64,000 nucleotides of DNA, from contig JACPJN010000009.1 in assembly GCA_016187515.1 (NCBI GenBank), positions 4,891 through 68,890 of the forward strand, written 5' to 3'. Positions 39,085 to 56,062 of this stretch are shown in pieces. The stretch comes from Candidatus Uhrbacteria bacterium. Its GTDB lineage: Bacteria; Patescibacteriota; Patescibacteriia; GWA2-47-26. The notes under the pieces are model-generated. The model ran no database searches. It was not told the DNA's origin and worked only from the letters and a program-made list of their open reading frames with translations. Position 1 is the first letter of the stretch, and the number at the start of each line of letters is the position of its first letter. The position numbers and the translations under genes are program-made.

Positions 39085-39144
39085 GAAGATAATTACTCAA
39101 TCACTTTTATGTAGTATACCACAGGGCTTCCGGATCGGCAATAG

Positions 39145-42495: not shown

Positions 42496-42598
42496 ATAAG
42501 TCCTATACGACCCATTCTAACAAATTCTTCAAAAAAAGAAAAGAGGTGCGCGGATACGGTTCTCACCGTATCCGCGCACCCCGTAAGGTGCTCTCTCG

Positions 42599-44317
42599 CT
42601 AGCGGCCGTTCCGGGCCGCCCGCTTGGCCGCATCCTTGGCGGCCTTCTTCTCCTCGCTGGTCATTCCGCCCCCACCCTTCTTGTCCTCCGCCGGCTTGAC
42701 GCGCGAATTCGAATTCCGCACGTTCGCCCTGGCCGCCGCGATTTTGCGCTCCGTGTTGCGGCCCCTCTTCTTGCACCGACCGCAGATTCCCGCCGCGATC
42801 GCGGCCAAACCGGCCTCGTCCGTGGCCGCCATGTTGAGCGGCGCGCCACCATTGCTTCGCGCGTAGAGCTGGCCCACCTTGCATCCGCATTCCGCGCAAG
42901 GCCTGCCCCGCTCCTCCCGCTCCGCGGTCCCGTTCCGCTTGGTCCCCTTCATCCGCTCCTGCCAGGCCTGGGGCCAATGGGCCGTGTAGTGCTGAATCAC
43001 CTGCCCGCGGAACCACGCCAGCGACTTGGCCAGCGCGCCGTGCATCAGGCAGTCCTTGGCCGCCTTCTTGGCCTGCTTGTTTCCCTCGGTTCCGTGGCGC
43101 AGGGCGTCTTCGTCGCTCACTCCCTCGGGCTTGTGGTCGCGAAGGAGCTGCGACCACGGCCCTCCGGTCTCATCCAGCGCCTTGTCACAGGCAAAGTGGT
43201 CCGGAAAATCCGCAACCGCGAAATTCAGGTCCGCCCGGGGATGGGGCGCGCCCGAAACCTCGGGTCGGGCATTGCAGGCCACCTGGATGCCGCCGGAACG
43301 AACCGACTCGCCAGAGCTGGCCGGCGCCGCGGTCGTCCGGACCGGCGCCGCGGAGGAGGCCGGCATTGCGGGACCCACCGGCGGGGCCTTGTATCCCAGC
43401 TTGGCCAGAAACTCGTCCAGCGTGGCCTTGGCCGCGCGCCGCTTGGCCTCCGCCGCCTCCTTCGCCGCCTCCGCCGCCTCCTTGGTCTTCTGCTCCTCGG
43501 CGCGCCTAAGCGCGGCCTCGGCCTCATTGACGTGCCGAAGCGCGCGCGCAAACTGCGCGTTCTGGAGCGCCGCAGTGTCCTTGTCCAAGTCCCCCTGCGT
43601 CACGAACTCCTTGATCCGGTTCTGGGCCTGCAGCACAGTGGCCCGGGCCTCGTCCAACTCCGCCTGGGTCTTGCCCAAGAAGAGGTTGTTCGGATCCGGC
43701 TCGCTCGCGGTTTCCTCCGCACTATCATCACGATCCTCGCCATCCGTGCGCGCGCCATCCGTGCCGATACCGGCCGCCGGCGCCGCCTCCTTGGCCTTGG
43801 CCTTCTCGGCTTCCTGGCCCGCCTTCCGAGCCGCGACCCAGGTGCGATGCCGCGACGCCCACTCGCGCGTTTTTTCCAGACGCTCAGCGCGGGAGGTCAT
43901 TTCTTCTTCCGCCCCGCGCTTGCGCCAATCCTCTTCCCCATCCTCCGCGGTCTGCTCGGCCACGTCGCCGTCGCGCACTTCGGCGTTTCGCAAGGTGCGC
44001 GACAAGTAGTACCACTGGCACCTCTTGCCCCCCGTCTTGTCCGAGTCCGCGCCGGCGTCAAAATCGAGACGCAAACGCGAGAGCACGGCCTTGCCATGCG
44101 CGTGGCAGAAAACCAAGGGACCGATCGTTGCCATCGGGTCCTTGCCATGCTCCGGCTGGCCCGCGACCGCACAGTCCTGGATGGCGCAAAAGTACGCGCC
44201 GCCTTCGTCCTGGTACTGGTAAAGCGCGAGCTGGTCCCGGGTGGGCAACTTTGCCCAAAGCGCGCCCCGCGCCAAAAGCGCGGCCGCGTCGTCTTCGGAA
44301 AACTTCGTCGGGGTCAT
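42599..44317 (-). CDS. Hypothetical 572-aa protein on a 68%-GC island (coiled-coil middle, C-terminal CxxC/CxxC zinc-finger region)
   Basis: Consistent GC3 codon bias with Lys/Glu content. RBS AAGGAGG inside a CCACCT/AGGTGG hairpin. Own promoter at 44413-44441. No family assigned. Confidence 0.45.
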   Translation of the reverse strand: MTPTKFSEDDAAALLARGALWAKLPTRDQLALYQYQDEGGAYFCAIQDCAVAGQPEHGKDPMATIGPLVFCHAHGKAVLSRLRLDFDAGADSDKTGGKRCQWYYLSRTLRNAEVRDGDVAEQTAEDGEEDWRKRGAEEEMTSRAERLEKTREWASRHRTWVAARKAGQEAEKAKAKEAAPAAGIGTDGARTDGEDRDDSAEETASEPDPNNLFLGKTQAELDEARATVLQAQNRIKEFVTQGDLDKDTAALQNAQFARALRHVNEAEAALRRAEEQKTKEAAEAAKEAAEAKRRAAKATLDEFLAKLGYKAPPVGPAMPASSAAPVRTTAAPASSGESVRSGGIQVACNARPEVSGAPHPRADLNFAVADFPDHFACDKALDETGGPWSQLLRDHKPEGVSDEDALRHGTEGNKQAKKAAKDCLMHGALAKSLAWFRGQVIQHYTAHWPQAWQERMKGTKRNGTAEREERGRPCAECGCKVGQLYARSNGGAPLNMAATDEAGLAAIAAGICGRCKKRGRNTERKIAAARANVRNSNSRVKPAEDKKGGGGMTSEEKKAAKDAAKRAARNGR

Positions 44318-44412
44318 TGGCCACCTCCTTAGGTGGTTTTTTGTGCGGTGATGATGAAAAGTGCTTCAAAATCGGCGCACCGCATCCTTAAACGCCAATT
44401 CTGCATAAGTGC

Positions 44413-44441
44413 AGGATAACACAAAAAGACGGGTTTGTCAA
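44413..44441 (-). promoter_or_regulatory. Promoter CTTGACA-N17-TATCCT (minus strand) for the island gene 42599-44317
   Basis: Reverse complement reads CTTGACAAACCCGTCTTTTTGTGTTATCCT. Same architecture as the promoters at 28181 and 54332. Confidence 0.45.
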
Positions 44442-44486: not shown

Positions 44487-46367
44487 TCACTCAAAACTAA
44501 GGTCGGATTCCGCCGGAGTTGCCGGCGGCTGATGTTCTGGGGCGGAAGACGGAGCGCCGGGGCTTGGCGCTCTATTTTGTCCAATACTTAATCCGGCGCT
44601 TTGCTGTTCTTTTCTCCGGCGCCGGCGGCGCCGCCGCTTTTTAGCGCTATCTGACATTCCGGGCACAGTACTGGTAAGCGGCGCGGGGATTCCCGACGCT
44701 CCCCCGGGAGGGGGTAAGGGCGGCGCCGAGATAAGCGGACGCGGATGAATTGACGGGCCGGCCTTGAGCGGCATTGGCCTTTGCCGCAGCGCTTCGCTAA
44801 GCGAGATCGGCCGCACTTCCGGCGCTACTTTTGCGACCGGCATCGTCGCCGCAATTTCAATTCTCTCTTTTCCACCCCTGCGGTATGCCTCCTGGCGCTG
44901 CATCCGAGCAGCATCGGGAGCGCCCCGCACCAGAGCCACAGCGCCAGAGCGGAGCTCGGTACTGGGCGCAGCAAGCTCGGTGCGGGGCAGGTCTGCCGAG
45001 GACCCTTGCGGCTGCGAGGGTGCAGCGCCAGGGGGCATACCCATCTCCTCTTCCCCGCTATCCACGCCGCTCCAGCGCATCACTTTTTCCTCGATCACGG
45101 CGACCTCGGCCGCGTAGCGCTCGCGCGAGACGCGAATAATTTTATCGCGGTGGCCTTGAAACTGCGCGACCGGCGGCAAAGTGGTCGCGGAAAACGGATT
45201 GGAAGTAACTCCGTCAATCATGAGTTTTAGATAAATGTCGTATTTCGTGAGATTAACCATATCCTCCTCAATAAAATGCGGCGCGAATTCTTTGGCCACA
45301 AACTCCGCGTCCTCCGCGCCGATGCGGAAGATTACCATGGTGCCCACGTTGCCGAACACCGCGTCCCGAACTTTGGTTGAAATATCCGTAACCAGCTGTC
45401 CGATATATTGGTGCGCGACAATCAAATTCAGCCGGTATTTTCTGGCCTCCGACAAAATATTGGCAAATGATTCCGTGGCAAAATTCTGAAATTCGTCAAC
45501 ATAGAGATAAAAATCCCGGCGCTCCGTCTCGGGAATATCCACCCGCTCCATCGCCGCCAGCTGTATTTTGGTAATCAGCATTCCGCCCAACAGCCGCGAA
45601 GTATCTTCTCCCAGCCGCCCCTTTGCGAGATTCATGATAAAAATCTTGCCGCTATCCATAAACTCGCGGGGATTGATGGTGGATTTGACCTGCGCGACGA
45701 TATTGCGAATTACCGAGGCGGAAAGAAACTGCCCGACTTTATTTTGAATCGGCTGGATCGCTTCATTGCGAAAACGCGCTTCCCAAACCTGATATTCATC
45801 CACCCAAAAGGCCTTGACAATCGGGTCTTTGATCTTGGCCACCACGCGCTTGCGGAAATTCTTGTCCACGAGCAAGCGATTAATCCCCAGGAGTGTTGAA
45901 CCGGGAAAATCCAAAAGCGCCAAAATGCAGTTGTTCAAAATATGCTCCATGCGCGCGCTCCAGACGTCCGGCCAAATTTTCTTAAACACCCCCATGAGCC
46001 CTTGGGCCACCAAATGCTTGTGCAAGGGATTAACGGTCTCCAGCACATTAAACGCCACTGGGAAGTCCGCGTCGGCCGGATTAAAATACACGACATCATT
46101 AATGCGGTGCTGGGGAATGTAATCCAGCAATTTATCCGCCATATCGCCGTGCGGGTCCACCACCCCGACCCCATGGCCGGCGACAATATCGTTGATAATC
46201 AGATTCTCGAGCGCGGTGGTCTTGCCCATTCCGGTTTTCCCAATAAGATACATGTGCCGGCGGCGGTCATCGGTTTTAATGCCAAATTTCCGCTTTTGAT
46301 TGCGAAAATTAGTCATCGCAAAGCAATTGATCTCGTTCTCGTGATCGTGGTCGTAAGTAATCGGCAT
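44487..46367 (-). CDS. FtsK/HerA-superfamily ATPase of the VirD4/TraD/TraG (type IV coupling protein) type with a Pro/Ala/Ser-rich, Arg-run C-terminal tail
   Basis: Walker A LIGKTGMGKTT. VVDPHGD motif typical of TrwB/VirD4. Walker B LYVDEFQNF followed by RKYRLNLIVAHQ. No N-terminal TM. The tail coding region is high-GC. Confidence 0.55.
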   Translation of the reverse strand: MPITYDHDHENEINCFAMTNFRNQKRKFGIKTDDRRRHMYLIGKTGMGKTTALENLIINDIVAGHGVGVVDPHGDMADKLLDYIPQHRINDVVYFNPADADFPVAFNVLETVNPLHKHLVAQGLMGVFKKIWPDVWSARMEHILNNCILALLDFPGSTLLGINRLLVDKNFRKRVVAKIKDPIVKAFWVDEYQVWEARFRNEAIQPIQNKVGQFLSASVIRNIVAQVKSTINPREFMDSGKIFIMNLAKGRLGEDTSRLLGGMLITKIQLAAMERVDIPETERRDFYLYVDEFQNFATESFANILSEARKYRLNLIVAHQYIGQLVTDISTKVRDAVFGNVGTMVIFRIGAEDAEFVAKEFAPHFIEEDMVNLTKYDIYLKLMIDGVTSNPFSATTLPPVAQFQGHRDKIIRVSRERYAAEVAVIEEKVMRWSGVDSGEEEMGMPPGAAPSQPQGSSADLPRTELAAPSTELRSGAVALVRGAPDAARMQRQEAYRRGGKERIEIAATMPVAKVAPEVRPISLSEALRQRPMPLKAGPSIHPRPLISAPPLPPPGGASGIPAPLTSTVPGMSDSAKKRRRRRRRRKEQQSAGLSIGQNRAPSPGAPSSAPEHQPPATPAESDLSFE

Positions 46368-46461
46368 AGGTTGAAGTTATTAGTTATTGAGTTATTCAGT
46401 TATTGAGTAACTCATACTGATCCGCCATACTTAATAACCTAATAACTTAATAACACTTAAC

Positions 46462-47862
46462 TCATCCCACCGGCAGATTATCCGGCGTCTCTCCTCGGAC
46501 TTCGGACTGCGCGGCGCGGGGGCGGTGGTGCGGGGAGGCGGGACTGGGAAGTTCATAAGGGGGCTCGCCCCGTTTGCTTTCGGCTTTTTTAACCAGCGGC
46601 GTTTTTACCGATTCGGCAACCGGGAAATGCCAGATCGTCGCGAGTTCCTCGACATTCAGGATATAACCGCGCATTCCGCGCCAATTACTGCGGAATTTAT
46701 ACGCGCGCATCACTTTCACCTTGCGCCAATTCTTGCGCATCTCTTTCCAAAGATATTTCGTATGGGTACCAACTTTTTTCAGCTCGGGCTTAAGCGAATT
46801 CATGTCTTCGGTGTTCAACTGTTTTATCGCGCCAATCAGTCCATAAACCGCGCGCGGTTTGCTGAAAATCTCGTGGCGCGCCAGATATACGGCACGAATT
46901 TTAGTATGAAATCCAAGCTTGGCCGCTTTGTCCTCCAGCGCTTGGATAACTTCGCGCTCTCCCGGCGTAAGATAGAGCATCTTGGAGGGCAGCTCCTCTT
47001 TAATTTTCGCGGTGTGTTCCGGATTGCCGGGCAAAAACGCGTCAATAATCATTGCGCCGACATGCCCGGGAATCGTCAGCACTCGGTCCAGCACGCTCGG
47101 TTTGTGCTCGGAAGGTATTCCGGCCAGCTTCTCCACCACGCGATAACATTCCTCCTGCCAACTGCGCGACTTAATCGGGGTGATAATCAATTGCAGCCAC
47201 AACTGCTCTCCCTCCCGCAGCGAACTCATGGTCTCGAGCAGCGCGGCCATCGGATCTTTGTAAGTCGCCTCCTCGGAAGTTTCGTCATGAAAATCCTCCC
47301 AGGTGCGAATCGGATAAGCAAAATGTTTGGCCAAAATAAATTCCGTACCCCACATATCCCATTGCGCGTCGGGAAAATGCGTTGGCGCGTCTTTGGTATA
47401 ATCCTCCACTTCGGTAATTTCGGCCGCCGGATATTGCGCGTAAATCGCCGCTTCCGCCAAGTCGCGGTTCTTGATCGTCGAATACACAAAGAATCGAATA
47501 AAACCGTTGATGCTCGCGATCTCCAAACTGAAAAATGGTTGGGCGTGCCCGGTAAAGTATTTCTGAATAAAGTTGGCTGTGGTATGCGCGCCGGCCAGAT
47601 GCGCCATGATATTTTCCACGGCGCGAGGGGTCTGGATATTCTCGCGCGGCACATCCACCGCCAAAAGCACCCAACTCCACTCATTTTGCTTTTTCCTGGT
47701 AATGTGCAAAAGCCACCACCATTTGAATCCGATTAAGAGCGCGATCAAAATCACGATCCAGCCCCCGCGGATAAACATAAACCAAGCCACGGCCAAGGGG
47801 TTGCCGGCGGCCGCGGCGAGAAACTGCGTAAAATCAAGAGTTATGGGTCCGAGTTGCAACAT
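46462..47862 (-). CDS. Hypothetical membrane-anchored protein (two N-terminal TM helices plus a large soluble domain), operon partner of the VirD4-like ATPase
   Basis: Start set to MLQLGPITL, 26 nt after the secF stop. The track N-terminus overlaps secF. No family assigned. Confidence 0.4.
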   Translation of the reverse strand: MLQLGPITLDFTQFLAAAAGNPLAVAWFMFIRGGWIVILIALLIGFKWWWLLHITRKKQNEWSWVLLAVDVPRENIQTPRAVENIMAHLAGAHTTANFIQKYFTGHAQPFFSLEIASINGFIRFFVYSTIKNRDLAEAAIYAQYPAAEITEVEDYTKDAPTHFPDAQWDMWGTEFILAKHFAYPIRTWEDFHDETSEEATYKDPMAALLETMSSLREGEQLWLQLIITPIKSRSWQEECYRVVEKLAGIPSEHKPSVLDRVLTIPGHVGAMIIDAFLPGNPEHTAKIKEELPSKMLYLTPGEREVIQALEDKAAKLGFHTKIRAVYLARHEIFSKPRAVYGLIGAIKQLNTEDMNSLKPELKKVGTHTKYLWKEMRKNWRKVKVMRAYKFRSNWRGMRGYILNVEELATIWHFPVAESVKTPLVKKAESKRGEPPYELPSPASPHHRPRAAQSEVRGETPDNLPVG

Positions 47863-47887: not shown

Positions 47888-48778
47888 TTACCGCCGGTTC
47901 TGCCATCGGTACCACGTAACCAGTAGCGGCGCGGCAATAAATATCGAGGAATAGGTTCCAAAAAATATGCCGATAAGCAGCGCCAGCGAGAAATCACGCA
48001 GTGACGCGCCGCCAAAGAAGAAAATCGCGAGCAGAGCCATCATCGTCGTAGCCGAGGTGTTGACGGATCGGGTGATGGTTTGGTGCACGGATACTTCCAC
48101 CACTTCCTCAAAAGTGCCGCGCACCCGCTTGAGATTCTCGCGCACCCGATCCAGCACGACGATCGTATCGGCAATCGAATATCCTAAAATGGTGAGTATC
48201 GCCGCGATAAACGAACTCCCCACCTCCCAGCCCTTAAAATAACCCAACAGCGAAAACAATCCCAGCGGGATGATCACATCATGAAGAAACGCGACAATGA
48301 CAATCAAACCGTATTTCCAAGACGCAATCGGACGGCTTACTTTTCTAAATGACCAGGCCAGATACCCCAGAATCATGAGCGCAACCAGGAAAACCGCCAC
48401 CAGCGATTTCCGGAAAAGCTCTTTGCCCACGCTTGGCCCGATTGAACTAAAACGCGCCTCTTCCGCTCCGGGAAAATCCGCGCGAATTTTGCCGATAATT
48501 TCCTGGTGCTTTTCTTCCGTAACCGGCGCGAAACGCAAAACCAGGGTCTGGCCCTCGCCTTGTTGAACGGCCGGCGCGCCCACCGTAAGCGTTTCAAAAA
48601 GCGCGCCCAGCTCCTCGCGCGCCGACGGCGGATCATTTGCAAATTTCACTTCCAAAAGCGACCCGCCGGTAAAATCAATTCCGGGCTTGAGGCCCCAAAT
48701 CAACAGCGCCAAAAGGGAAAGCCCGACTAGCGCGCCGGATAAGCTGAACCAAATTTTCCGATTGGGGATTATTTGCAT
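47888..48778 (-). CDS. secF: Protein translocase subunit SecF
   Basis: SecF periplasmic domain and 6 TM. Follows secD. Confidence 0.85.
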   Translation of the reverse strand: MQIIPNRKIWFSLSGALVGLSLLALLIWGLKPGIDFTGGSLLEVKFANDPPSAREELGALFETLTVGAPAVQQGEGQTLVLRFAPVTEEKHQEIIGKIRADFPGAEEARFSSIGPSVGKELFRKSLVAVFLVALMILGYLAWSFRKVSRPIASWKYGLIVIVAFLHDVIIPLGLFSLLGYFKGWEVGSSFIAAILTILGYSIADTIVVLDRVRENLKRVRGTFEEVVEVSVHQTITRSVNTSATTMMALLAIFFFGGASLRDFSLALLIGIFFGTYSSIFIAAPLLVTWYRWQNRR

Positions 48779-48782
48779 ATTG

Positions 48783-48840
48783 AGTCGTCAGACATCAGTC
48801 CACAGTTCACTGTCGACTGTGAACTGATGTCTGTGAACTT
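48783..48840. repeat. Family-3 GTGAACTG-word palindrome between secF and secD
   Basis: CAGTTCACTGTCGACTGTGAACTG dyad centred on GTCGAC. Related copies at 4164-4198 (in frame in gltX), 37479-37529 (rpsD/rpsK spacer) and 60655-60730 (in frame in secA). Confidence 0.8.
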
Positions 48841-50939
48841 CGAACGCGCGTACCATACCACCCGGCTCCCTGCACATGCGGCGCGACCAAGCGTAAAAAT
48901 ATCCGCGTTACCGTAATCGCGGAAAACAGCGACATGACTACTCCGATTGAAAGGGTCAATCCAAAACCCTTGACGAGCGAGGTTGAAAACCAAAACATAA
49001 TCAGCGCTCCAAAAAGCGTGGTCAAATGGCTATCGCGGATTGAAGGCCACGCGCGCTTAAAGGCCTCCTCGCTCGCGCTAGCGACATTTTTACCGGCGCG
49101 CAACTCTTCTTTAAGCCGCTCAAATTGCAAGACATTCGCATCCACCGCCATCCCCACCGAAAGAATAAATCCGGCAATGCCCGAAAGCGTCAGCGTAACC
49201 GGTATGAATTTAAATAAAGTCAGGACGATGGCGGTATAGATAAACAGCGCCAATACCGCGAGCACCCCGGCCAGCCGATAATAAAGCATCATAAAGAGCG
49301 CCACCAGCGCAAAACCGATCAGTCCGGCTTTAAGCGAGGCCGCGATGGATACCGCGCCTAAACTGGCGCCCACGGTTTGCTGGCTGACCAGTCGAATCGG
49401 CACGGGCAAGGCCCCGGCGTTAAGCCGTTGGGCCAAAAGTTTGGCCTCGGCAATGGTAAAACTTCCGGTAATCACCGCGCGGCCGTCCAAAATCGGGGTT
49501 TGCACGCTGGGGATGGAGATCGGCGCGCCATCCAAGAAGATCCCGACTGGTTTACCGACATTGCGCGAAGTAATATCCGCGAAGAATTGTTTCCCCTCCT
49601 CATTAAATTCCAGACCAACCTGCGGGAAATTGGTTTGCGGGTCAAACTGCATTGCCGCGCGGGTCAAATGCTTTCCGGAAAGCTGGGTGTTTTTCCAAGG
49701 ATCCGGCGGCGGAAGATAATCCGCTTCGGTTTTCTGTCTAAACAAAATGCGCGCGACATTATACGCCTTGACTGGCCGCTCTTCGATTCTCCGAATCAGG
49801 TGAAATCCAAATTGGGTTTCCACCGGGTCGGAAATGGCACCGTTACCAAGCGCGAAAACCGCGTCCTCAAACGGCTTGACCATGGCGCCTTTGGGAAAAA
49901 ATCCCAAATCCCCGCTGCGCTCGGCCGCTCCGGGTTCGGTCGAATTTTCTCGCGCCAATTTTTCAAAATTATCCGCGGCCGCGATTTTTTTAAGCTCCTC
50001 GATTTTGGCGCGCGCGTCATCCTTGGAAGTATCGCGATCGCAGAACTCGGCGCCTCTAAAACAAATTAAAATGTGCTGGGCATGCACCTCCATGCCGCGA
50101 TCCTCCGCGCTATTGACGCGCACGATATTTAAGCCCTCGCGGGTTTTGAGCGGCTCCAGCCCGATTTTGCCCGGACCTTGCGCGTCCGCGAAGCTCCAAA
50201 GCTCGCCATACGCGCTATCGCGGGTAATCAGACCTAAACTGCCGCCGACATCTTTCGTGGCCAAATCATCGGAATATTTTTTGGCCAGCGCCATGAAATC
50301 AACCTCCTCCTGGCTCTTCAGTTCGGCCAGCGCTTGATCCAGCCGCTGGCGCGAGTTGCGGTTATACTCCTCCAGGTCTTTTTTCTCCTCGGCCGTAAGC
50401 GCGCGCTGCGGCTCGGGATTGGCTTCTTCTTTAAATTCCAATACCGGCGTCTCCCCGATCTGCGCGATAGCTTCCTTAACGTCTTTAACTCCGGCCAACT
50501 CCACGACCAGCCGCCAGGTATCGCCGGTGCGCGCGGTCTGGACCACTGGTTCAGCCACCCCGAACAAATTTACCCGCCGTTCAATCACATCGCGCACGCC
50601 TTCCATGGCCGTATCGCGATCAACTGAAGAGATCTGCGCAAGATCCGCCTCATAGACCAAATGCGCTCCGCCGGCCAAATCCAAACCGAGCTGAAATGGC
50701 CGACCGGTGAGATGGCCCAGGCGTACTGCCTGCGCTTGCCGAAAGCCCCAGATATTGATCGGCGGCAACTTTTCTATCCCGCTATTTACTCGGTCAGCGC
50801 CAAAATTCCACGCTTGTGGATAAGCCAGTACCCCAGTCACCAGCGCCAATACCAACACAAAAAATAGGGTCCAGCGCAATTTTCCGCGCGGACTGGGATT
50901 CATCAGACCTTTCCACAACCGTTTGAACATAGTTGCCAA
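48807..50939 (-). CDS. secD: Protein translocase subunit SecD carrying two embedded parvulin-type PPIase domains
   Basis: SecD N-terminal TM, P1 domain and C-terminal 5 TM. Inside P1 are two PpiC-like segments (FMALAKKYSDDLATKDVGGSLGLI... and FEKLARENSTEPGAAERSGDLGFFPKGAMVKPFEDAVFALGNGAISDPVETQFGFHLI). Confidence 0.85.
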   Translation of the reverse strand: MATMFKRLWKGLMNPSPRGKLRWTLFFVLVLALVTGVLAYPQAWNFGADRVNSGIEKLPPINIWGFRQAQAVRLGHLTGRPFQLGLDLAGGAHLVYEADLAQISSVDRDTAMEGVRDVIERRVNLFGVAEPVVQTARTGDTWRLVVELAGVKDVKEAIAQIGETPVLEFKEEANPEPQRALTAEEKKDLEEYNRNSRQRLDQALAELKSQEEVDFMALAKKYSDDLATKDVGGSLGLITRDSAYGELWSFADAQGPGKIGLEPLKTREGLNIVRVNSAEDRGMEVHAQHILICFRGAEFCDRDTSKDDARAKIEELKKIAAADNFEKLARENSTEPGAAERSGDLGFFPKGAMVKPFEDAVFALGNGAISDPVETQFGFHLIRRIEERPVKAYNVARILFRQKTEADYLPPPDPWKNTQLSGKHLTRAAMQFDPQTNFPQVGLEFNEEGKQFFADITSRNVGKPVGIFLDGAPISIPSVQTPILDGRAVITGSFTIAEAKLLAQRLNAGALPVPIRLVSQQTVGASLGAVSIAASLKAGLIGFALVALFMMLYYRLAGVLAVLALFIYTAIVLTLFKFIPVTLTLSGIAGFILSVGMAVDANVLQFERLKEELRAGKNVASASEEAFKRAWPSIRDSHLTTLFGALIMFWFSTSLVKGFGLTLSIGVVMSLFSAITVTRIFLRLVAPHVQGAGWYGTRVRSSQTSVHSRQ

Positions 50940-51077: not shown

Positions 51078-51860
51078 CTACATCTTCCCCGTCCTGGCGT
51101 ATCGCCGCTTCCATGCTAAAAACTTCTTCCACATCAATACATCCTTATGCCACCCGGTTGGATCTTCCAGAAATGCTTGATGAATCTCGTACATTTCGCG
51201 CGACACCAGACCGCGCTTCAAAAGATATGCGATCCACTCACGCCGTGTGTAAAGCGCGTCGTATGTCACACCGCGCCGCTTCAGCTTCTCGACAAATGGT
51301 CGGTTCTTTGGCCACCATGGATTCCAAAGCGTCATCGTATGTTTTACAATCACACCATCACTTTTGCAATCGCGGATCGCCTTGAGAATGGTGCCGCCAA
51401 ATCCGATCACATCATCAACTAGCACTGCCCGCGCGCCCGTTTTGTATTCTCCCTCCACAATCCGCCGTCGGAGCGTCTTCTTCCGCCCCTTGTTCAGGTA
51501 CGCAAATGGAATGCCGGTCTTGAGCGACAGCGCCAACGCCATCGGAATCCCCGCCATCGGAATCCCCACAATCAAATCAACGCCTCGTAAATCAATACCT
51601 CTCCTCCCCCGCCCACCCGGTGGAAAAAAAGTTCCATACTTGGAACTATGGAACTTTTTTGCTTTGGGACCGTTGCGGAGTTGATATTGTTTTAGGATCT
51701 TCGCAAGCTCTTCCACGAACACGCGAAATTCTTTCGGATGCGAATATAACGCCCGACTGTCATTAAAAAACGGCACCAGCGCGCCAGTGGTTGACTGCAC
51801 AAACGGCCCCACATGAATCGGGACTTTTGAAATCGCCTTTAGCGCTCGTAAATTTGCCAT
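51078..51860 (-). CDS. Phosphoribosyltransferase (type I PRTase, OPRT-like) with an in-frame GTTCCATA palindrome
   Basis: PRPP-binding motif VLVDDVIGFGGTI. Repeat 51625-51660 encodes KKFHSSKYGTF. Confidence 0.55.
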   Translation of the reverse strand: MANLRALKAISKVPIHVGPFVQSTTGALVPFFNDSRALYSHPKEFRVFVEELAKILKQYQLRNGPKAKKFHSSKYGTFFPPGGRGRRGIDLRGVDLIVGIPMAGIPMALALSLKTGIPFAYLNKGRKKTLRRRIVEGEYKTGARAVLVDDVIGFGGTILKAIRDCKSDGVIVKHTMTLWNPWWPKNRPFVEKLKRRGVTYDALYTRREWIAYLLKRGLVSREMYEIHQAFLEDPTGWHKDVLMWKKFLAWKRRYARTGKM

Positions 51861-51943
51861 ACGTCTTCGCCTCCTCCCCCTGATCCCTCACCCTCCCCTC
51901 TCCCTTGGGGAGGGGGTGGCCGGGTGAGGGAGGCGGGGAGGGG

Positions 51944-52702
51944 TTATGAAACTTCCACCCCATGCTCTTTCATAAATTGTACCACAAACTCCTCAATCGG
52001 AACTCCTTCTTTTTTCATCAACTTATACACACGCAAGAGATTCTCTCCCCTTTCCCAATAAGGTCCATCAGAGTTTTTCTGCTCAATCTCACAGAGTTCT
52101 TGCGAAATAACGCCCGCCGCAAGTTGAAGACGCGCAAGTTCAGGATAATCAATTAAATAATGCAAACCAATGCCGCGTTCTTGCAGCCATTCGGCGGCTT
52201 TAAAATTATATGAGGGAATGAGCGGTTTGTTTGGCGGAGTGGGCAGCACTTTTATAAACACCGCGATATCAGTAACTTTAGCTCCGCGCTCTTCCAGTAA
52301 CTTAATTCGCTCCTCTTTCGTACCCCCATAGGCCATCAGATCATCAACTAAAAGCACTCGCACTCCGGCGCTGATAAAATTTACATCACCCACGATAGGG
52401 CTTCGTCCCGGCCGTTTGGGTTTTTCCCGCACAATCACCATTGGCTTTCCGGTCTCCAACGCAATCGCCGTAGCCAGTGTTACGCCTTGCAATTCAATGC
52501 CAGCCACCACATCAATTATGGAAAAATCTATAAGACGGAAAAACTCCTTGGCCATGAGTTTCAAAATTTCCGGCTCTTGGATCACTCCTCGCGACCAATC
52601 CACCGGAATAAACTGCCCTGTGGCCACAATCGTCGGCTTTAACTGAAACAGCGGCTTAAACGTGGCGAGTTTTTGGATGAGTTCTGGGTTTTTGATGTTC
52701 AT
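51944..52702 (-). CDS. Phosphoribosyltransferase (type I PRTase) paralog
   Basis: PRPP motif VLLVDDLMAYGGT. Paralogous to 55322-56062 (shared IVRE..KRPGR and C-terminal KEHGVEVS). Confidence 0.55.
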   Translation of the reverse strand: MNIKNPELIQKLATFKPLFQLKPTIVATGQFIPVDWSRGVIQEPEILKLMAKEFFRLIDFSIIDVVAGIELQGVTLATAIALETGKPMVIVREKPKRPGRSPIVGDVNFISAGVRVLLVDDLMAYGGTKEERIKLLEERGAKVTDIAVFIKVLPTPPNKPLIPSYNFKAAEWLQERGIGLHYLIDYPELARLQLAAGVISQELCEIEQKNSDGPYWERGENLLRVYKLMKKEGVPIEEFVVQFMKEHGVEVS

Positions 52703-52748
52703 ATACTGGACATGCTTAATATACGTTGGCTCTCTAAATTGATTAGTA

Positions 52749-52783
52749 AAAAAGTTCCATACTTGGAACTATGGAACTTTTTT
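52749..52783. repeat. Family-2 palindrome, intergenic copy with A5/T7 flanks (bidirectional terminator-like)
   Basis: AAAAAGTTCCATACTTGGAACTATGGAACTTTTTTT between the PRTase and the TrpR-like gene. Confidence 0.8.
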
Positions 52784-53392
52784 TGAGTTGCTAGAATTGA
52801 CCTTACCAAGCGGCATCTCCTTCTCCAATTGCTGTTTGCGCCGCGGGCTTTGACGTTCGGCGCGCAAAAGTTCTTCAATGTAGCGAAACACTTCTCGCTT
52901 ACCCTTGCCTGAGACGCGCAATACTTTGAGCGTCTCAAGCATCTGTGCGCGTTGGCGATTATTGGCGGCGCGAATAATCCCCTCCAACAGTCCCTGCGGC
53001 CAATAATAAAGCGGAAAGCGCCGCGCCATTTCGCTTCTGGGCACCGCCGGCATCCATTCAGGTACTTTCATATCCGTTTTGGCCAGTCCGCGTTTCATCA
53101 CCATCCGAAACCCCTCGCCCGCCTGTTGCAGCCATAAATTCACCCGTGCGATGGTCTGCTGGCTAACCTTAAGGTCTTTGCGAATCTGTTCGTATTTTTT
53201 ATCTTTTAAGAGAAGCTTGGCGATTTGCAAGCGCTTCGCCACCATCAAAAGCTCTTGATCAGAGAGAAGATCGCCTAGTATTTTCGCGGCTTCTTCCAGT
53301 TTCTTGACCATTACCATGGACTGGCATAATTCAAGCAGCACTTGCTGTCGCGCTTGTGGGCTCAATTTTTGATAAGGAGTAAACTTTGCCAT
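52769..53392 (-). CDS. TrpR/YerC-like helix-turn-helix DNA-binding protein
   Basis: HTH segment RLQIAKLLLKDKKYEQIRKDLKVSQQTIARVN, typical of the Trp_repressor/YerC family. Confidence 0.45.
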   Translation of the reverse strand: MAKFTPYQKLSPQARQQVLLELCQSMVMVKKLEEAAKILGDLLSDQELLMVAKRLQIAKLLLKDKKYEQIRKDLKVSQQTIARVNLWLQQAGEGFRMVMKRGLAKTDMKVPEWMPAVPRSEMARRFPLYYWPQGLLEGIIRAANNRQRAQMLETLKVLRVSGKGKREVFRYIEELLRAERQSPRRKQQLEKEMPLGKVNSSNSKKVP

Positions 53393-53520
53393 ACGCGTTA
53401 TACTTTACTATAAATTAACCTCCAATTCACAGTACTAGGATCTCATCATGTCCCACAAAACTATAATATCACGGAATCGCCAAACGCAAAAGTTCCATAG
53501 TTCCAAGTATGGAACTTTTT

Positions 53521-54246
53521 TTATTGCCTTGCTGATGTAAGTTTGTGGAAACTTTGGTGCAAGACAGCGCTGGGTTCTTTTGATGCTAGCGCGTAAAGCT
53601 TGGACCAATTCCTTGGTTGCCGCACCCATTGATATGGATCCTGAAGATACTTGAGCATCAAATCCGCGAACGCGGGACTGAAAAACTTCTTGCGTTTTGC
53701 AGTGCGGATGCAATCGGCCCAGCCGACAAGCACCTGCACCGGGAACTTTTGTTTCCAAAGCCAGGCGCGCTTGCGCTGCAGAATTTTGGATTGTGTGCCC
53801 TGCCAAGCATCAAGCAACACCGCCATACCAACTACTTCTAAGCCAGCATTTCTCAATGCTAATACGACATATTTTTTAGTATCGGCAGTGGACAGGCCGT
53901 CATCAACAATAACTACCCGCTGACCGCGCGTAAACTCCCCTTCCACTACTTTTTTCAAATGCAATGACTTCGGTTCCGGCCGAATGAACACAAAATTCCT
54001 CTTAAGCGCAAGTGCGACTGGCAAACCCAAAAGAATCCCGCGCACTGCTGGGGCGGCAATTACGTCCGGTTTCCACCGACGCACGCTGCGCGTCATTTCC
54101 CGCACCACTGCCCTAAGTCGCTTCGGATTCGACAAAAATCCAGCTATATCAGGATACATTGGCGCAAGTACGCCAGCTTTGGTTTCGATCTTTCCGACAT
54201 TATGAAAACCTTTATATGCCGTAAGGTTTGCGAGTCGTGAAGACAT
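53521..54246 (-). CDS. Phosphoribosyltransferase (type I PRTase) paralog
   Basis: PRPP motif VVIVDDGLSTADT. Start trimmed to MSSRLANL because the track N-terminus is read from the GC-rich spacer. Confidence 0.5.
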   Translation of the reverse strand: MSSRLANLTAYKGFHNVGKIETKAGVLAPMYPDIAGFLSNPKRLRAVVREMTRSVRRWKPDVIAAPAVRGILLGLPVALALKRNFVFIRPEPKSLHLKKVVEGEFTRGQRVVIVDDGLSTADTKKYVVLALRNAGLEVVGMAVLLDAWQGTQSKILQRKRAWLWKQKFPVQVLVGWADCIRTAKRKKFFSPAFADLMLKYLQDPYQWVRQPRNWSKLYALASKEPSAVLHQSFHKLTSARQ

Positions 54247-54331
54247 ATTGCAAATCCTAGCCATCCTGAGCGAAGCGAAGAGCCTGCCCTGAGCCCGTCG
54301 AAGGGATCTCGCGCGCATGCGCGACCACCCC

Positions 54332-54360
54332 TTGACATATTACCGTATTTATGCTATCAT
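54332..54360 (+). promoter_or_regulatory. Promoter TTGACA-N17-(TGc)TATCAT preceded by the 14-nt palindrome GCGCGCATGCGCGC
   Basis: TTGACA at 54332-54337 and TATCAT at 54355-54360. GGAGGA RBS before ATG 54413. Confidence 0.5.
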
Positions 54361-54412
54361 ACACACAGTTGCTCTTCAACCAACGAACCCCACAACCAAT
54401 GGAGGATAAACC

Positions 54413-55006
54413 ATGCCGCGACTCATGGTACAAGGCGATCGCGACGCGAACGGAATTGAGGACGCCGTGCTCAAACTCGGCAGCATCTGCGGGGAGCGCG
54501 GAATCGGGCTGAACGTTGGCGAGGCCGGCAAAATCGTGCATCTGCTCGCCGAGACCGGCGCGCATGTGCGCGTGCATCAGGCCAAACCCGAGCCGCCCAA
54601 CGTGCCGGAAGGATTCAGAGGCGAGATCGTGAATTGCACCGCCGCGGCGCTTCCTGCGCACACCCACCTGCCCGCGGGGGCGAAGATTGCGCGTGTGGCC
54701 TGGGCCATCCGCCTGGCCTGCCTCGACGACTCGGACGGCTTCATCTTCTTCCCGGGCCGCGAAGGTACGCTGGCCCACCTCGTCCCCATCATGGCCTTCA
54801 TCGCCAAGGGCGAGCGAGACAAGGGCGTGGCCTGTCCCCGCCGCGTGGCGCTCGTGGGATGGAGCGGGCCGCTGATCACTGCGCTCTGCACCCTGTTCAA
54901 CATCTGGCCGACCACGCCCGGTGGAGAGTGGCTCGATTCCTTCGCCAGCGATGAGATGGGCCGTGCCATCTCCTGGCTCACCGCAGGTTTACCCGCCGAG
55001 CGATAG
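54413..55006 (+). CDS. LOG/SLOG-type Rossmann-fold nucleotide-binding protein (TIGR00730-like) on a GC-rich islet
   Basis: FFPGREGTLAHL resembles the LOG PGGxGTxxE motif. 66% GC with GC3 bias. Sole plus-strand gene in a minus-strand cluster. Flanked by a double palindromic repeat at 55237-55318. Confidence 0.45.
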   Translation: MPRLMVQGDRDANGIEDAVLKLGSICGERGIGLNVGEAGKIVHLLAETGAHVRVHQAKPEPPNVPEGFRGEIVNCTAAALPAHTHLPAGAKIARVAWAIRLACLDDSDGFIFFPGREGTLAHLVPIMAFIAKGERDKGVACPRRVALVGWSGPLITALCTLFNIWPTTPGGEWLDSFASDEMGRAISWLTAGLPAER

Positions 55007-55236
55007 GTGCCACAGCGCCGAATGGCATGCACGGCGGACCCAGAGGCGGGCCTGCCGGCCACTTAGTCCTTTCCCCAAATCCGTCATCTCGAACGCAGTG
55101 AGAGATCTCTTTACCTTCGCATGCCACGCGGAAGAGATTCCTCGCTAGCGCTCGGAATGACGATTAACCGCTCCTTCGTCAACCCACCCGATCGTGCGTC
55201 ATGCGCGATCGGGTGAATTATTTTATACAAGGAATT

Positions 55237-55318
55237 CCCTCCCTTAAGGTAAGGGAGGGTAGGGTGGGTTATGAATTTCTCGTAACCCCTCCTCGCCTCC
55301 CCTTACCCTAAGGGGAGG
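55237..55318. repeat. Family-1 double element (forward plus reverse complement), intergenic after the LOG-like gene
   Basis: Same sequence as the atpG copy, in the opposite arrangement. Confidence 0.8.
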
Positions 55319-55321
55319 AAA

Positions 55322-56062
55322 CTAAAGCCCACTCACATCCACGCCGTGTTTTTGAAAAAACTCCTTGAGCGCTGGCTCTATTTTCACACCTCTCTTTCGC
55401 AAATACGCAGCGCTACGTGTTAAATTTCCTTGGCTGTCGTTGCTAAATGCGCCGGTTTTCAAGCGCGCAACACTCAACGCGTAAAATTCGTCGTCCATAA
55501 CTCCTCCCTCATGTTGCAAACGGCAAAGCTCAGACCATTTGATAAGCGTGACGATCTTGATCCCCCGCTCTTGCAACTCGTGCATCGGTCCTCGCTCACT
55601 CTCCTCCATGTCAAAGTCACCCAAACACGCGATCGCTTCCACTTTGGCGCCGGCATCCTCCAGCAACTTGAGTCCGCCATGTTTATTCTTCCCGCTCGCG
55701 ATCCAATCATCAACCATAAGTACGCTCATTCCTGGTTTGAGGAAGTTGTGTGACCCCATAATCCTTGGCCGTCCCGGCCGTTTCTGGTCTTCCCGCACAA
55801 TCACGAACGGTTTTTTAGTGCGCAAGGAAAGCGCAGTGGTAATAGACACGCCGGAGATCGGCAATGCGGCGAGGAGATCAAATTTCGACACCTCCAGGAC
55901 TTCAAGAAATGCATCCGTGATGAGTGCGAGCGCGGTCGGATCTTGGATCGTCCCCCGCGAAAAATCGAACGGGGTAAAATCAATATTAGTAATTACCGGC
56001 TGCGCGATAATCGCGTTCGGAAAGGTCTTAAGATATTCAAATAATTTTTCTCGCGCAGTCAT
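55322..56062 (-). CDS. Phosphoribosyltransferase (type I PRTase) paralog
   Basis: PRPP motif VLMVDDWIASGKN. 4-nt overlap with the upstream kinase gene. Confidence 0.55.
   Translation of the reverse strand: MTAREKLFEYLKTFPNAIIAQPVITNIDFTPFDFSRGTIQDPTALALITDAFLEVLEVSKFDLLAALPISGVSITTALSLRTKKPFVIVREDQKRPGRPRIMGSHNFLKPGMSVLMVDDWIASGKNKHGGLKLLEDAGAKVEAIACLGDFDMEESERGPMHELQERGIKIVTLIKWSELCRLQHEGGVMDDEFYALSVARLKTGAFSNDSQGNLTRSAAYLRKRGVKIEPALKEFFQKHGVDVSGL

Follow-up and report, generated by a model that had tools for sequence, protein, structure and literature searches.

What is a VirD4/TraD-like ATPase doing next to secD and secF in the genome of a Candidatus Uhrbacteria bacterium? The question is raised by a 64,000-nt stretch of contig JACPJN010000009.1 (hereafter the window, in whose coordinates all positions are given; public gene calls exist for the identical contig), which encodes a 626-aa ATPase related to the coupling proteins (T4CPs) of type IV secretion systems (T4SS) and, directly upstream, its putative membrane partner. 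An initial annotation made from the sequence considered this pair a possible remnant of a conjugative element, or a possible DNA-translocation or host-interaction module of ultrasmall bacteria. The open reading frames (ORFs), the sequence motifs, and the secDF neighborhood it described were recovered. The pair may indeed be a module of the second kind; a conjugative origin is not what the evidence points to. Overall, the locus is best explained as encoding a split, membrane-anchored, TrwB-like motor ATPase, vertically inherited and independent of conjugation, and we consider this explanation probable. The identity of the pair, its origin by gene fission, and its vertical inheritance are, taken by themselves, very likely.

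In the ATPase, a Walker A motif (GKTGMGKTT, residues 43–51), a VVDPHGD box (68–75), a Walker B motif (YLYVDEFQNF, 287–296), and the sequence LIVAHQ (315–320) show no or almost no variation across alignments of 25 and 36 homologues; ~150 columns of the core are invariant among the latter. The protein exceeded the Pfam gathering scores of TrwB_AAD_bind (49.4 versus 20.5 bits), TraG-D_C (31.0 versus 22 bits), and T4SS-DNA_transf (28.6 versus 20.1 bits), was marginal for DUF87 (24.7 versus 23.2 bits), and stayed below the cutoff of FtsK_SpoIIIE (12.7 versus 24 bits). Neither the ATPase nor its partner matched the VirB4 families of Pfam (CagE_TrbE_VirB, AAA_10, or P-loop_TraG), and the ATPase reached none of the NCBIfam models for T4CPs or conjugation at the curated cutoff (the best, SXT_TraD, yielded 51.6 versus 366 bits). 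When a profile of 25 homologues was used to search the sequences of the PDB, TrwB (E = 3e-6) and DotL were the sole matches, and the motifs GxxGxGKT and (I/V)VDPxGD align with those of TrwB. Comparison with TrsE of pGO1 by hhalign covered 88 columns only (probability 71%).

The predicted structure of the core (AF2, residues 1–445; pLDDT 82, pTM 0.85) consists of a β-hairpin, a P-loop NTPase domain, and an inserted all-α domain (helices at residues ~114–238), the insertion comprising eight helices between strands E92–95 and E242–246. Foldseek related this model to HerA, TrwB, Cag-β, DotL, DndH-C, and the C-terminal domain (CTD) of VirB4, all with a probability of 1.0; it superimposes on TrwB with a TM-score of 0.55–0.58 over ~410 columns and on the VirB4 CTD (4ag5) with a TM-score of 0.58. 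The relationship to T4SS coupling proteins proposed initially is thus borne out by the Pfam thresholds (TrwB_AAD_bind and T4SS-DNA_transf among them), by the PDB matches, and by the fold. Within the HerA/FtsK superfamily, the ATPase is a true, if divergent, representative of the T4CP/VirB4 branch, and by sequence it lies closest to the T4CPs. An identity as FtsK/SpoIIIE translocase was rejected because the Pfam score is subthreshold and the chain has no transmembrane (TM) segment: a hydrophobicity scan of all 626 residues revealed no hydrophobic segment, as had been claimed. A HerA helicase or defense HerA was likewise discarded, given the borderline DUF87 score, the superfamily-wide likeness of the fold, and the lack of a NurA, Sir2, or DUF4297 partner gene.

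The core is followed by a disordered and basic tail (the last ~186 residues) made up of 16% Pro, 15% Ala, 11% Arg, and 11% Ser, with a net charge of +9 and the run KKRRRRRRRRK (KKR8K). The initial description of a Pro/Ala/Ser-rich tail with eight consecutive arginines is therefore accurate; its GC content was put too high at 70%, the measured value being 0.65 with an ordinary GC content at third codon positions (GC3) of 0.61, and the high GC results from the amino acid composition. Among 120 homologues, 117 have a tail of positive net charge (median +8), and 77 tails end in a treble-clef zinc finger (zinc ribbon) of the form CxxC-x(12–25)-CxxC, detected as Pfam zf_Tbcl_2 in homologue P0039. 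The ATPase of the window carries the Arg run where most homologues have the zinc finger (CxxC-x17-CxxC), as does a close homologue from Uhrbacteria. A basic tail suggests a polyanionic ligand, nucleic acid being the simplest candidate; an acidic protein or anionic lipids are conceivable too.

The partner was described initially as a two-TM protein of 467 aa and unknown family. The ORF is there, with 466 aa from its ATG. A longer version beginning at a TTG (48015) was rejected: it overlaps secF, and the public gene calls and all homologues begin at the ATG. The protein does belong to a family, DUF8128 (PF26449), which is assigned to exactly this protein and to nearly all of 120 homologues listed; this assignment is a precomputed annotation, and local Pfam and NCBIfam scans gave no match for the partner, the Pfam copy used being one without the PF26449 model. 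No papers on PF26449 or DUF8128 were found in literature searches. As to the membrane, the partner contains one hydrophobic stretch (residues ~22–52) with a conserved GGW at its middle; such a single stretch is present in 39 of 44 family members and two stretches in none of the 44. The AF2 model (pLDDT 80, pTM 0.74) shows residues 22–60 as one helix, followed by a cytoplasmic α/β domain. The ATPase thus has its membrane partner, as foreseen, in the form of a DUF8128 protein with a hydrophobic anchor. Stand-alone partners form a large and old family (3,232 clusters at 50% identity), the best 150 of which are all 287–691 aa long.

When the partner model was compared with the PDB using Foldseek, the 13 best matches were all to TrwK, the VirB4 of R388 (E = 9e-6 to 1e-3, probability 0.98–1.0). 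The CTD-only structure of VirB4 (4ag5) was absent from the 50 matches listed, which suggests, without proving it, that the match falls on the N-domain of VirB4; the tool did not show which part of TrwK was aligned. Against such a likeness stand the low global TM-scores to TrwK (0.29–0.35) and the lack of any similarity to TrsD and to the N-terminus of TrsE of pGO1 in hhalign comparisons, so that the resemblance of DUF8128 to the VirB4 N-domain comes from the predicted structure only. The partner could also not be demonstrated to be the “TrsD-like” component reported beside virB4 of Patescibacteria, as it shares no similarity with TrsD of pGO1. A PDB search with the partner profile returned chance matches only. 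Weaker structural matches following TrwK were chains of the ESX-3 complex (6umm_A and 6sgz_D; probability 0.66–0.69), presumably EccE, which accompanies the FtsK-like secretion ATPase EccC in the membrane.

That the two genes are two halves of one protein is seen from proteins of phages and of other Patescibacteria. In phrog_5156 (824 positions), the partner matched positions 60–330 (E = 2e-16) and the ATPase positions 407–805 (E = 1.6e-58). Similarly, hhalign placed the partner profile on residues 46–324 (probability 96%) and the ATPase profile on residues 373–781 (99.9%) of gp156 from Bacillus phage G (825 aa), which was also the best match of the partner model among viral models (BFVD; E = 7.6e-18), with the VirB4-like gp155 at E = 5.9e-7. 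PADLOC yielded no match for the partner. Nor did tblastn against phage genomes, gp156 being found by profile and structure methods only. In phage G (L081, 1220–5362), gp155 (P-loop_TraG, AAA_10) is encoded immediately upstream of gp156, which is annotated as “MsbA-like”; phages JL and Slash encode related proteins. A search with gp156 also retrieved at least 90 proteins of Patescibacteria (725–1142 aa) in which PF26449 is combined with PF10412, PF01935, or PF12696. These fused homologues, from Berkelbacteria, Falkowbacteria, Gottesmanbacteria, and Saccharibacteria, are collinear with the partner (20–31% identity) followed by the ATPase (40–58% identity).

In a neighbor-joining tree of the ATPase domains, the split ATPases constitute one clade within “clade A”, sister to the fused Berkelbacteria type and near the Microgenomatia type; fused examples of clade A are P0273 (Berkelbacteria) and P0314 (Gottesmanbacteria). 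As the split ATPases are a single clade nested among fused forms, the pair of the window is the product of the fission of a gene whose protein combined a VirB4-like architecture with a TrwB-like motor; that the tree is rough and unbootstrapped weighs against this step. The two-gene version occurs in ABY1/Uhrbacteria-type and Parcubacteria-type lineages. The members of clade B (P0279 of Falkowbacteria, P0300 of Saccharibacteria) are always fused, adjoin dnaX or gyrBA, and are preceded by a small gene. Named Falkowbacteria genomes hold both a split pair (L016) and a clade-B protein, which makes clade B a paralogue. On a contig of Berkelbacteria (L092, 2432–11146), both paralogues are arranged in tandem (829 aa, 173 aa, and 937 aa), adjoining secF and secD on the opposite strand. 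Such an arrangement hints at possible cooperation between the paralogues and at a link to secDF older than the fission.

At the point of fission, the pair of the window is separated by a spacer that consists almost wholly of a long imperfect hairpin (inverted repeat of 35 nt, 80% complementary), in which four heptamer repeats AGTTATT face three copies of AATAAC, without a U-tract. Its predicted RNA fold (ΔG −30.8 kcal/mol, z −4.25) was not equaled in stability by any of 200 shuffled sequences. The corresponding spacers of relatives are at most 41 nt in 29 loci and long in 20; among these 20, z falls below −2 for the predicted fold of 12 and below −3 for that of 10, despite unrelated sequences. 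The hairpin could be an element of RNA processing or stability, or inserted palindromic DNA. A second, weak match of the heptamer motif (at 39091) was dismissed, as it does not form a hairpin.

A scan of one genome per species retrieved at least 589 loci, that is, the family is present in at least 589 species-representative genomes; synteny was counted in the best 80 loci as ranked by similarity of the ATPase. By tblastn, the order secD-secF-partner-ATPase, followed by 0.4–9 kb of variable sequence and mnmA-alaS-infA-rpsM, was found in ~50 of these 80, secD being syntenic in 39 and secF in 40 related loci. Independent gene-called contigs had the identical order, sometimes with secA upstream, and with genes for BacA, a PBP5-like protein (Peptidase_S11), or YkuD in the variable slot; in one locus, the pair, mnmA, and alaS were retained and the adjacency to secDF was gone. 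Homologue searches were saturating: the ATPase gave more than 8,000 matches and the partner 2,089, and the named ones are all Patescibacteria (Uhrbacteria, Magasanikbacteria, and Parcubacteria). As an aside, the TPA metagenome-assembled records of L004, L008, L010, L017, L018, L023, and ~30 other loci are titled “uncultured Gammaproteobacteria bacterium” and are evidently mislabeled, since they carry the gene order specific to Patescibacteria.

The base composition of the pair is native: the GC content is 0.51 for the ATPase core and 0.53 for the partner, the window mean being 0.53, and GC3 is ordinary as well. The “GC-rich island” on which the pair had been placed therefore shrinks to the 572-aa gene downstream, the only one of aberrant composition. 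No VirB4 and no relaxase were found among the proteins of the window, and no relaxase or mating-pair-formation genes within 8–10 kb of the ATPase gene in those loci of relatives that were examined. The pair is thus a vertically inherited, Patescibacteria-wide core chromosomal gene pair without a link to virB4, a relaxase, or any hallmark of mobile elements, and the locus studied here is an ordinary instance of it. Conserved synteny of a housekeeping gene pair in relatives had been named initially as grounds for refuting the conjugative reading, and it is what was found. In the locus, secD is probably the first gene of an operon secD-secF-partner-ATPase, with only 25 nt between the stop codon of secF and the ATG of the partner, and the pair is probably cotranscribed with secD-secF.

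Published data allow the pair to be set against the T4SS of Patescibacteria. In a census by Quinonero-Coronel et al (PMC12102498), 5,713 VirD4-type homologues were counted in 2,918 of 3,035 Patescibacteria genomes, only 148 of them near virB4, which itself occurs in fewer genomes (2,417); its authors suggested that the VirD4-type homologues have been exapted for another role. This average of about two VirD4-like genes per genome agrees with the existence of two paralogues. The virB4 locus of ABY1 lies near comF, recG, and radA (PMC12102498) and differs from that of the pair. Transposon sequencing of Southlakia epibionticum (Wang et al, PMC10633639) identified SEML1_0142 and the small gene upstream of it as essential. 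SEML1_0142 encodes a 1019-aa protein that has a TraM-recognition domain and the P-loop at residues 381–800. Its context (small gene upstream, gyrB downstream) is that of the clade-B protein P0300, by which synteny SEML1_0142 is matched to the clade-B paralogue as its orthologue in Saccharibacteria. A second protein, SEML1_0293 (921 aa, PF10412 at 402–719), is nonessential, and a canonical, essential FtsK coexists with both (PMC10633639).

How, then, do other explanations fare? The ATPase could be the genuine T4CP of the Patescibacteria T4SS, encoded away from virB4 and recruiting protein or DNA substrates during epibiotic growth, and its T4CP-type Pfam matches and TrwB-like fold speak for this. 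Genes for T4CPs are also often apart from virB4 in bona fide systems (PMC12102498), the T4SS cluster of Patescibacteria has no recognizable coupling protein (PMC10633639), and the partner may, to judge from its model, resemble the VirB4 N-domain, which docks onto VirB3/VirB6/VirB8. However, by the census figures given above, T4CP homologues occur in more genomes than VirB4 does and are rarely near virB4; the T4SS genes are essential in S. epibionticum, whereas the annotated T4CP homologue SEML1_0293 is not. The window encodes no relaxase, and the protein reaches the cutoff of no curated NCBIfam T4CP family. The substrate-docking tail of TraD is acidic, unlike the basic tail of the ATPase. We regard a function as T4CP as unlikely. 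Independence of the pair from conjugation is well supported, and independence from the T4SS of Patescibacteria is suggested by the distribution and by the nonessentiality of one paralogue. The conjugative remnant proposed initially, that is, a decayed conjugative or integrative element comprising a T4CP and accessory genes on a horizontally acquired GC-rich island, draws on the same T4CP-like domains, on the adjacent 572-aa gene with its GC3 of 0.84, promoter-like site, and terminator, and on an IS110 transposase and a tyrosine recombinase in the window, 38–43 kb off. It is highly improbable nonetheless: dozens of genomes share the synteny with housekeeping genes, composition is native, VirB4, relaxase, tRNA, and flanking repeats are lacking, and the core is extremely conserved, with thousands of orthologues.

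The conserved order secD-secF-DUF8128-ATPase on one strand, with gaps of 25 and 94 nt, could also mean that the ATPase belongs to protein export or the envelope, tied to the Sec pathway (secA, secDF) and cell-wall genes, and powers the insertion of proteins or pilins, or their extraction, instead of moving nucleic acid. In its favor, relatives have secA upstream and genes for BacA, Peptidase_S11, and YkuD downstream, even the fused genes of Berkelbacteria adjoin secDF, and the partner has the weak fold matches to ESX-3 chains, presumably EccE. Yet L091 and the Magasanikbacteria-type loci have the pair without secDF, the clade-B paralogue adjoins dnaX or gyrBA instead, gene order in small genomes is heritable without functional coupling, and the basic or zinc-finger tail suggests a polyanionic ligand; this alternative appears unlikely to us, although the neighborhood keeps it in contention. 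Finally, an anti-phage defense ATPase of the HerA/DndH/MADS type might be suspected from the PADLOC results (mad8, 51 bits, and weak HerA models) and from fold matches to DndH-C, HerA-DUF4297, and other defense complexes. These matches, however, are at the superfamily level and stem from the fold common to HerA and FtsK proteins; a partner gene for a nuclease, Sir2, or DUF4297 is lacking, the DUF8128 partner has no PADLOC match, and the fixed position, near-universal distribution, and very high conservation are the opposite of how defense islands behave, which leaves hardly any room for this idea.

The preferred explanation, a split TrwB-like motor independent of conjugation, has weaknesses of its own. 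Across the 80 loci, the ATPase has a median identity of 69%, compared with 57% for rpsM (S13), 55% for infA (IF-1), and 49% for alaS, but ranking the loci by similarity of the ATPase exaggerates its relative conservation. A DUF8128 gene is missing within 10 kb of the split-type ATPase gene in 29–30 of the 80 loci, which are Magasanikbacteria-like and many of which are named Magasanikbacteria; instead, small HIT-like and NUDIX-like genes and a protein with 12–14 TM helices are encoded upstream, mnmA and alaS often still being downstream. The partnership is thus not in cis everywhere and could be dispensable in these loci. The secretion and cell-wall genes nearby (secA, secDF, and those for BacA, the PBP5-like protein, and YkuD) fit a role in protein handling or at the envelope no less than one with nucleic acid. 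By its Pfam pattern, the nonessential SEML1_0293 may be the counterpart of the pair in the window, and the term “housekeeping” may therefore overstate its importance.

The window as a whole is core genome, and the locus of the pair is not mobile DNA. The window encodes, apart from SecA and SecDF, an AddA-like helicase-nuclease, the F1Fo ATP synthase, ClpB, GltX, MnmA, AlaRS, IF-1, S13, RpoA, MurB, glycosyltransferases, and phosphoribosyltransferases. Four paralogous genes with phosphoribosyltransferase domains lie in a row upstream of secD (51078..56062, −; individually at 51078..51860, 51944..52702, 53521..54318, and 55322..56062), a row broken by a GC-rich patch and an unrelated ORF; a GC3-rich ORF at 54413..55006 (+) is without a family match. 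An IS110-family transposase (5156–6556, +; Transposase_20, DEDD_Tnp_IS110) makes up a GC-rich patch at 5–7 kb (GC 0.67, GC3 0.87), and a XerC/D-type tyrosine recombinase is encoded at 870..1901 (+). Rfam and tRNA scans of the window returned no match.

Downstream of the ATPase, the 572-aa gene encodes a protein rich in Ala, Glu, Arg, and Gly with a CxxC...CxxC motif at residues 474–515 and without a match in Pfam, NCBIfam, PHROG, PADLOC, or the PDB. Its GC content is 0.68 and its GC3 0.84, compared with ~0.62 for GC3 of its neighbors. The only homologue in the 80 loci (31% identity; L001, 12761–14251, +), situated downstream of the ATPase gene with one 257-aa gene in between, has a GC3 of 0.86 in a genome of 48% GC, as against 53% GC for that of the window; high GC3 thus persists in both despite deep divergence. 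Scattered ORFs of high GC3 also occur in ~10 of the 80 related loci. That the gene has its own promoter, as stated initially, agrees with a σ70-like consensus match (TTGACA-17-TATCCT, 10/12, with TG extension) ahead of it, and it also has a terminator of its own, a hairpin with an 18-bp stem. Its strong canonical Shine–Dalgarno sequence (AAGGAGGTG) is enclosed in a small hairpin (CCACCU-AAGG-AGGUGG, 44319–44338) directly before the ATG, which could serve translational control; no canonical Shine–Dalgarno sequence was seen in the upstream sequences read for the DUF8128 and ATPase genes. The 572-aa gene is a compositionally foreign, lineage-specific filler of the variable slot between ATPase and mnmA, outside the conserved module.

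The window also contains 13 copies of a 23-nt palindrome (CCYCCYCTTANNNTAAGRGGRGG; 0.00 expected in 64 kb), often paired and flanked by inverted ends (CATAACyCCCC...GGGGTTATG) in units of ~95 nt. Seven copies lie in frame within housekeeping ORFs (atpD, atpG, a GT4 glycosyltransferase gene, alaS, mnmA twice, an APH-like kinase gene, and murB), where they read PPLxLRGG on either strand; an alignment of MnmA shows these segments as insertions that five relatives, the closest among them, do not have. They resemble the palindromic elements of Rickettsia; literature searches for in-frame elements of this kind in CPR turned up no publication. KFHSSKYGTF is encoded by a second repeat, which is present in mnmA and in the gene at 51078..51860.

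Table 1. Features of the pair, its neighborhood, and its relatives (window coordinates; L, locus).
Feature	Position	Strand	Basis or detail
secD with PpiC-type rotamase insert	48807..50939	−	ORF; Pfam SecD_1st, Rotamase, SecDF_P1_head, SecD_SecF_C on identical public gene call
secF	47888..48778	−	ORF; directly upstream of partner, same strand
Partner gene (DUF8128, PF26449), 466 aa from ATG	46462..47862	−	ORF; same product in public gene call
C-terminal region of partner			NIEELATLWHFP...
Intercistronic spacer, 94 nt	46368..46461	−	Between partner gene and ATPase gene
ATPase gene, 626 aa	44487..46367	−	ORF
ATPase core, residues 1–440	45048..46367	−	Pfam, PDB profile matches, AF2, Foldseek
ATPase C-terminal tail, residues ~441–626	44487..45047	−	Composition, GC3
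σ70-like promoter match	44413..44441	−	Consensus match only
572-aa gene	42599..44317	−	ORF
Intrinsic-terminator-like hairpin	42543..42582	−	18 pairs, 12 G-C, then T-run
23-nt palindrome, starts	20437, 22200, 23098, 28678, 29834, 39854, 41996, 42032, 50959, 50995, 55296, 56240, 63241		
Relatives' spacers noted with hairpin			L001, L006, L007, L010, L013, L019, L027–L029, L046
Loci without DUF8128 gene within 10 kb of ATPase gene			L020, L030, L033, L034, L036, L038, L040–L042, L044, L047, L049, L050, L052, L053, L055, L056, L058–L060, L062, L064, L069, L072, L074, L075, L077–L079

What could such a split motor do? The DUF8128 subunit would tether a hexameric ring of the ATPase to the cytoplasmic face of the membrane, a role that may be likened to that of VirB3 together with the VirB4 N-domain, or to that of the transmembrane segment of TrwB. 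ATP hydrolysis would then drive translocation or remodeling of a polymer at the membrane, and this substrate would most likely be a polyanion (nucleic acid) bound via the ATPase's long basic tail, the machine acting as a housekeeping function independent of conjugation. This proposal for the specific substrate and role of the pair is tentative and may well prove wrong. Bolder, and unlikely as it stands, is the idea that DUF8128, the TrwB-like ATPase, and the clade-B paralogue form an undescribed, T4SS-independent core machine of Patescibacteria, an evolutionary intermediate of VirB4 (N-domain) and VirD4 (motor) that serves as a membrane-docked nucleic acid translocase and relatives of which were borrowed by Bacillus jumbo phages. 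If true, the machine might import or process host-derived RNA or DNA in organisms unable to make nucleotides. Patescibacteria account for much of bacterial diversity and rely on their hosts for nucleotides, lipids, and amino acids, and how macromolecules are transported across their envelope is an open question. The orphan VirD4-like genes of the census gain an anatomy, that is, a DUF8128 N-module with a predicted VirB4-like fold and a TrwB-like motor. To this are added the two paralogous lineages, the gene fission in the lineage of the window, and the link to proteins of jumbo phages; one paralogue is tied by synteny to an essential gene in the sole genetically tractable member. The annotation label “T4SS DNA-binding domain protein” can thus be replaced by a testable two-subunit machine.

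Compared with the T4CPs TrwB, VirD4, and TraD, the ATPase shares a P-loop NTPase domain of the HerA/FtsK superfamily with an inserted all-α domain. It differs in that its chain has no transmembrane segment, the anchor residing on the separate 466-aa DUF8128 protein, whose large cytoplasmic domain has no equivalent in T4CPs, and in that its tail is basic or, in homologues, bears a zinc finger. It is also a chromosomal, vertically inherited core gene unlinked to relaxase or T4SS genes. With VirB4 (TrwK) plus VirB3, the pair has in common an anchor, a non-ATPase N-domain, and a RecA-like C-domain (together ~800 aa in the fused homologues), an architecture realized in trans in the window and in cis in fused homologues. 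In contrast to VirB4, however, there is no sequence-level similarity to VirB4 families (hhalign comparisons with TrsD and TrsE were negative or marginal), the motor domain is nearer to T4CPs, and the pair is encoded apart from the virB4 cluster of Patescibacteria.

EccE-EccC of type VII secretion, by analogy only, likewise pairs an ATPase of the FtsK/HerA superfamily with a membrane protein that has a cytoplasmic α/β domain and few TM helices; here, no other component of a type VII secretion system accompanies the pair, sequence similarity is lacking, and the fold probability is just 0.66–0.69. Phage G gp156 and its relatives in phages JL and Slash contain both modules in the same order, including PF26449, within one chain (825 aa in gp156). 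Despite this common layout, gp156 is fused, has no detected N-terminal hydrophobic segment, and shares 28% identity in the ATPase part. With the fused DUF8128-ATPase proteins of other Patescibacteria, the pair has the two domains and the housekeeping context in common; they are one polypeptide, whereas the window holds two genes with a structured spacer at the break.

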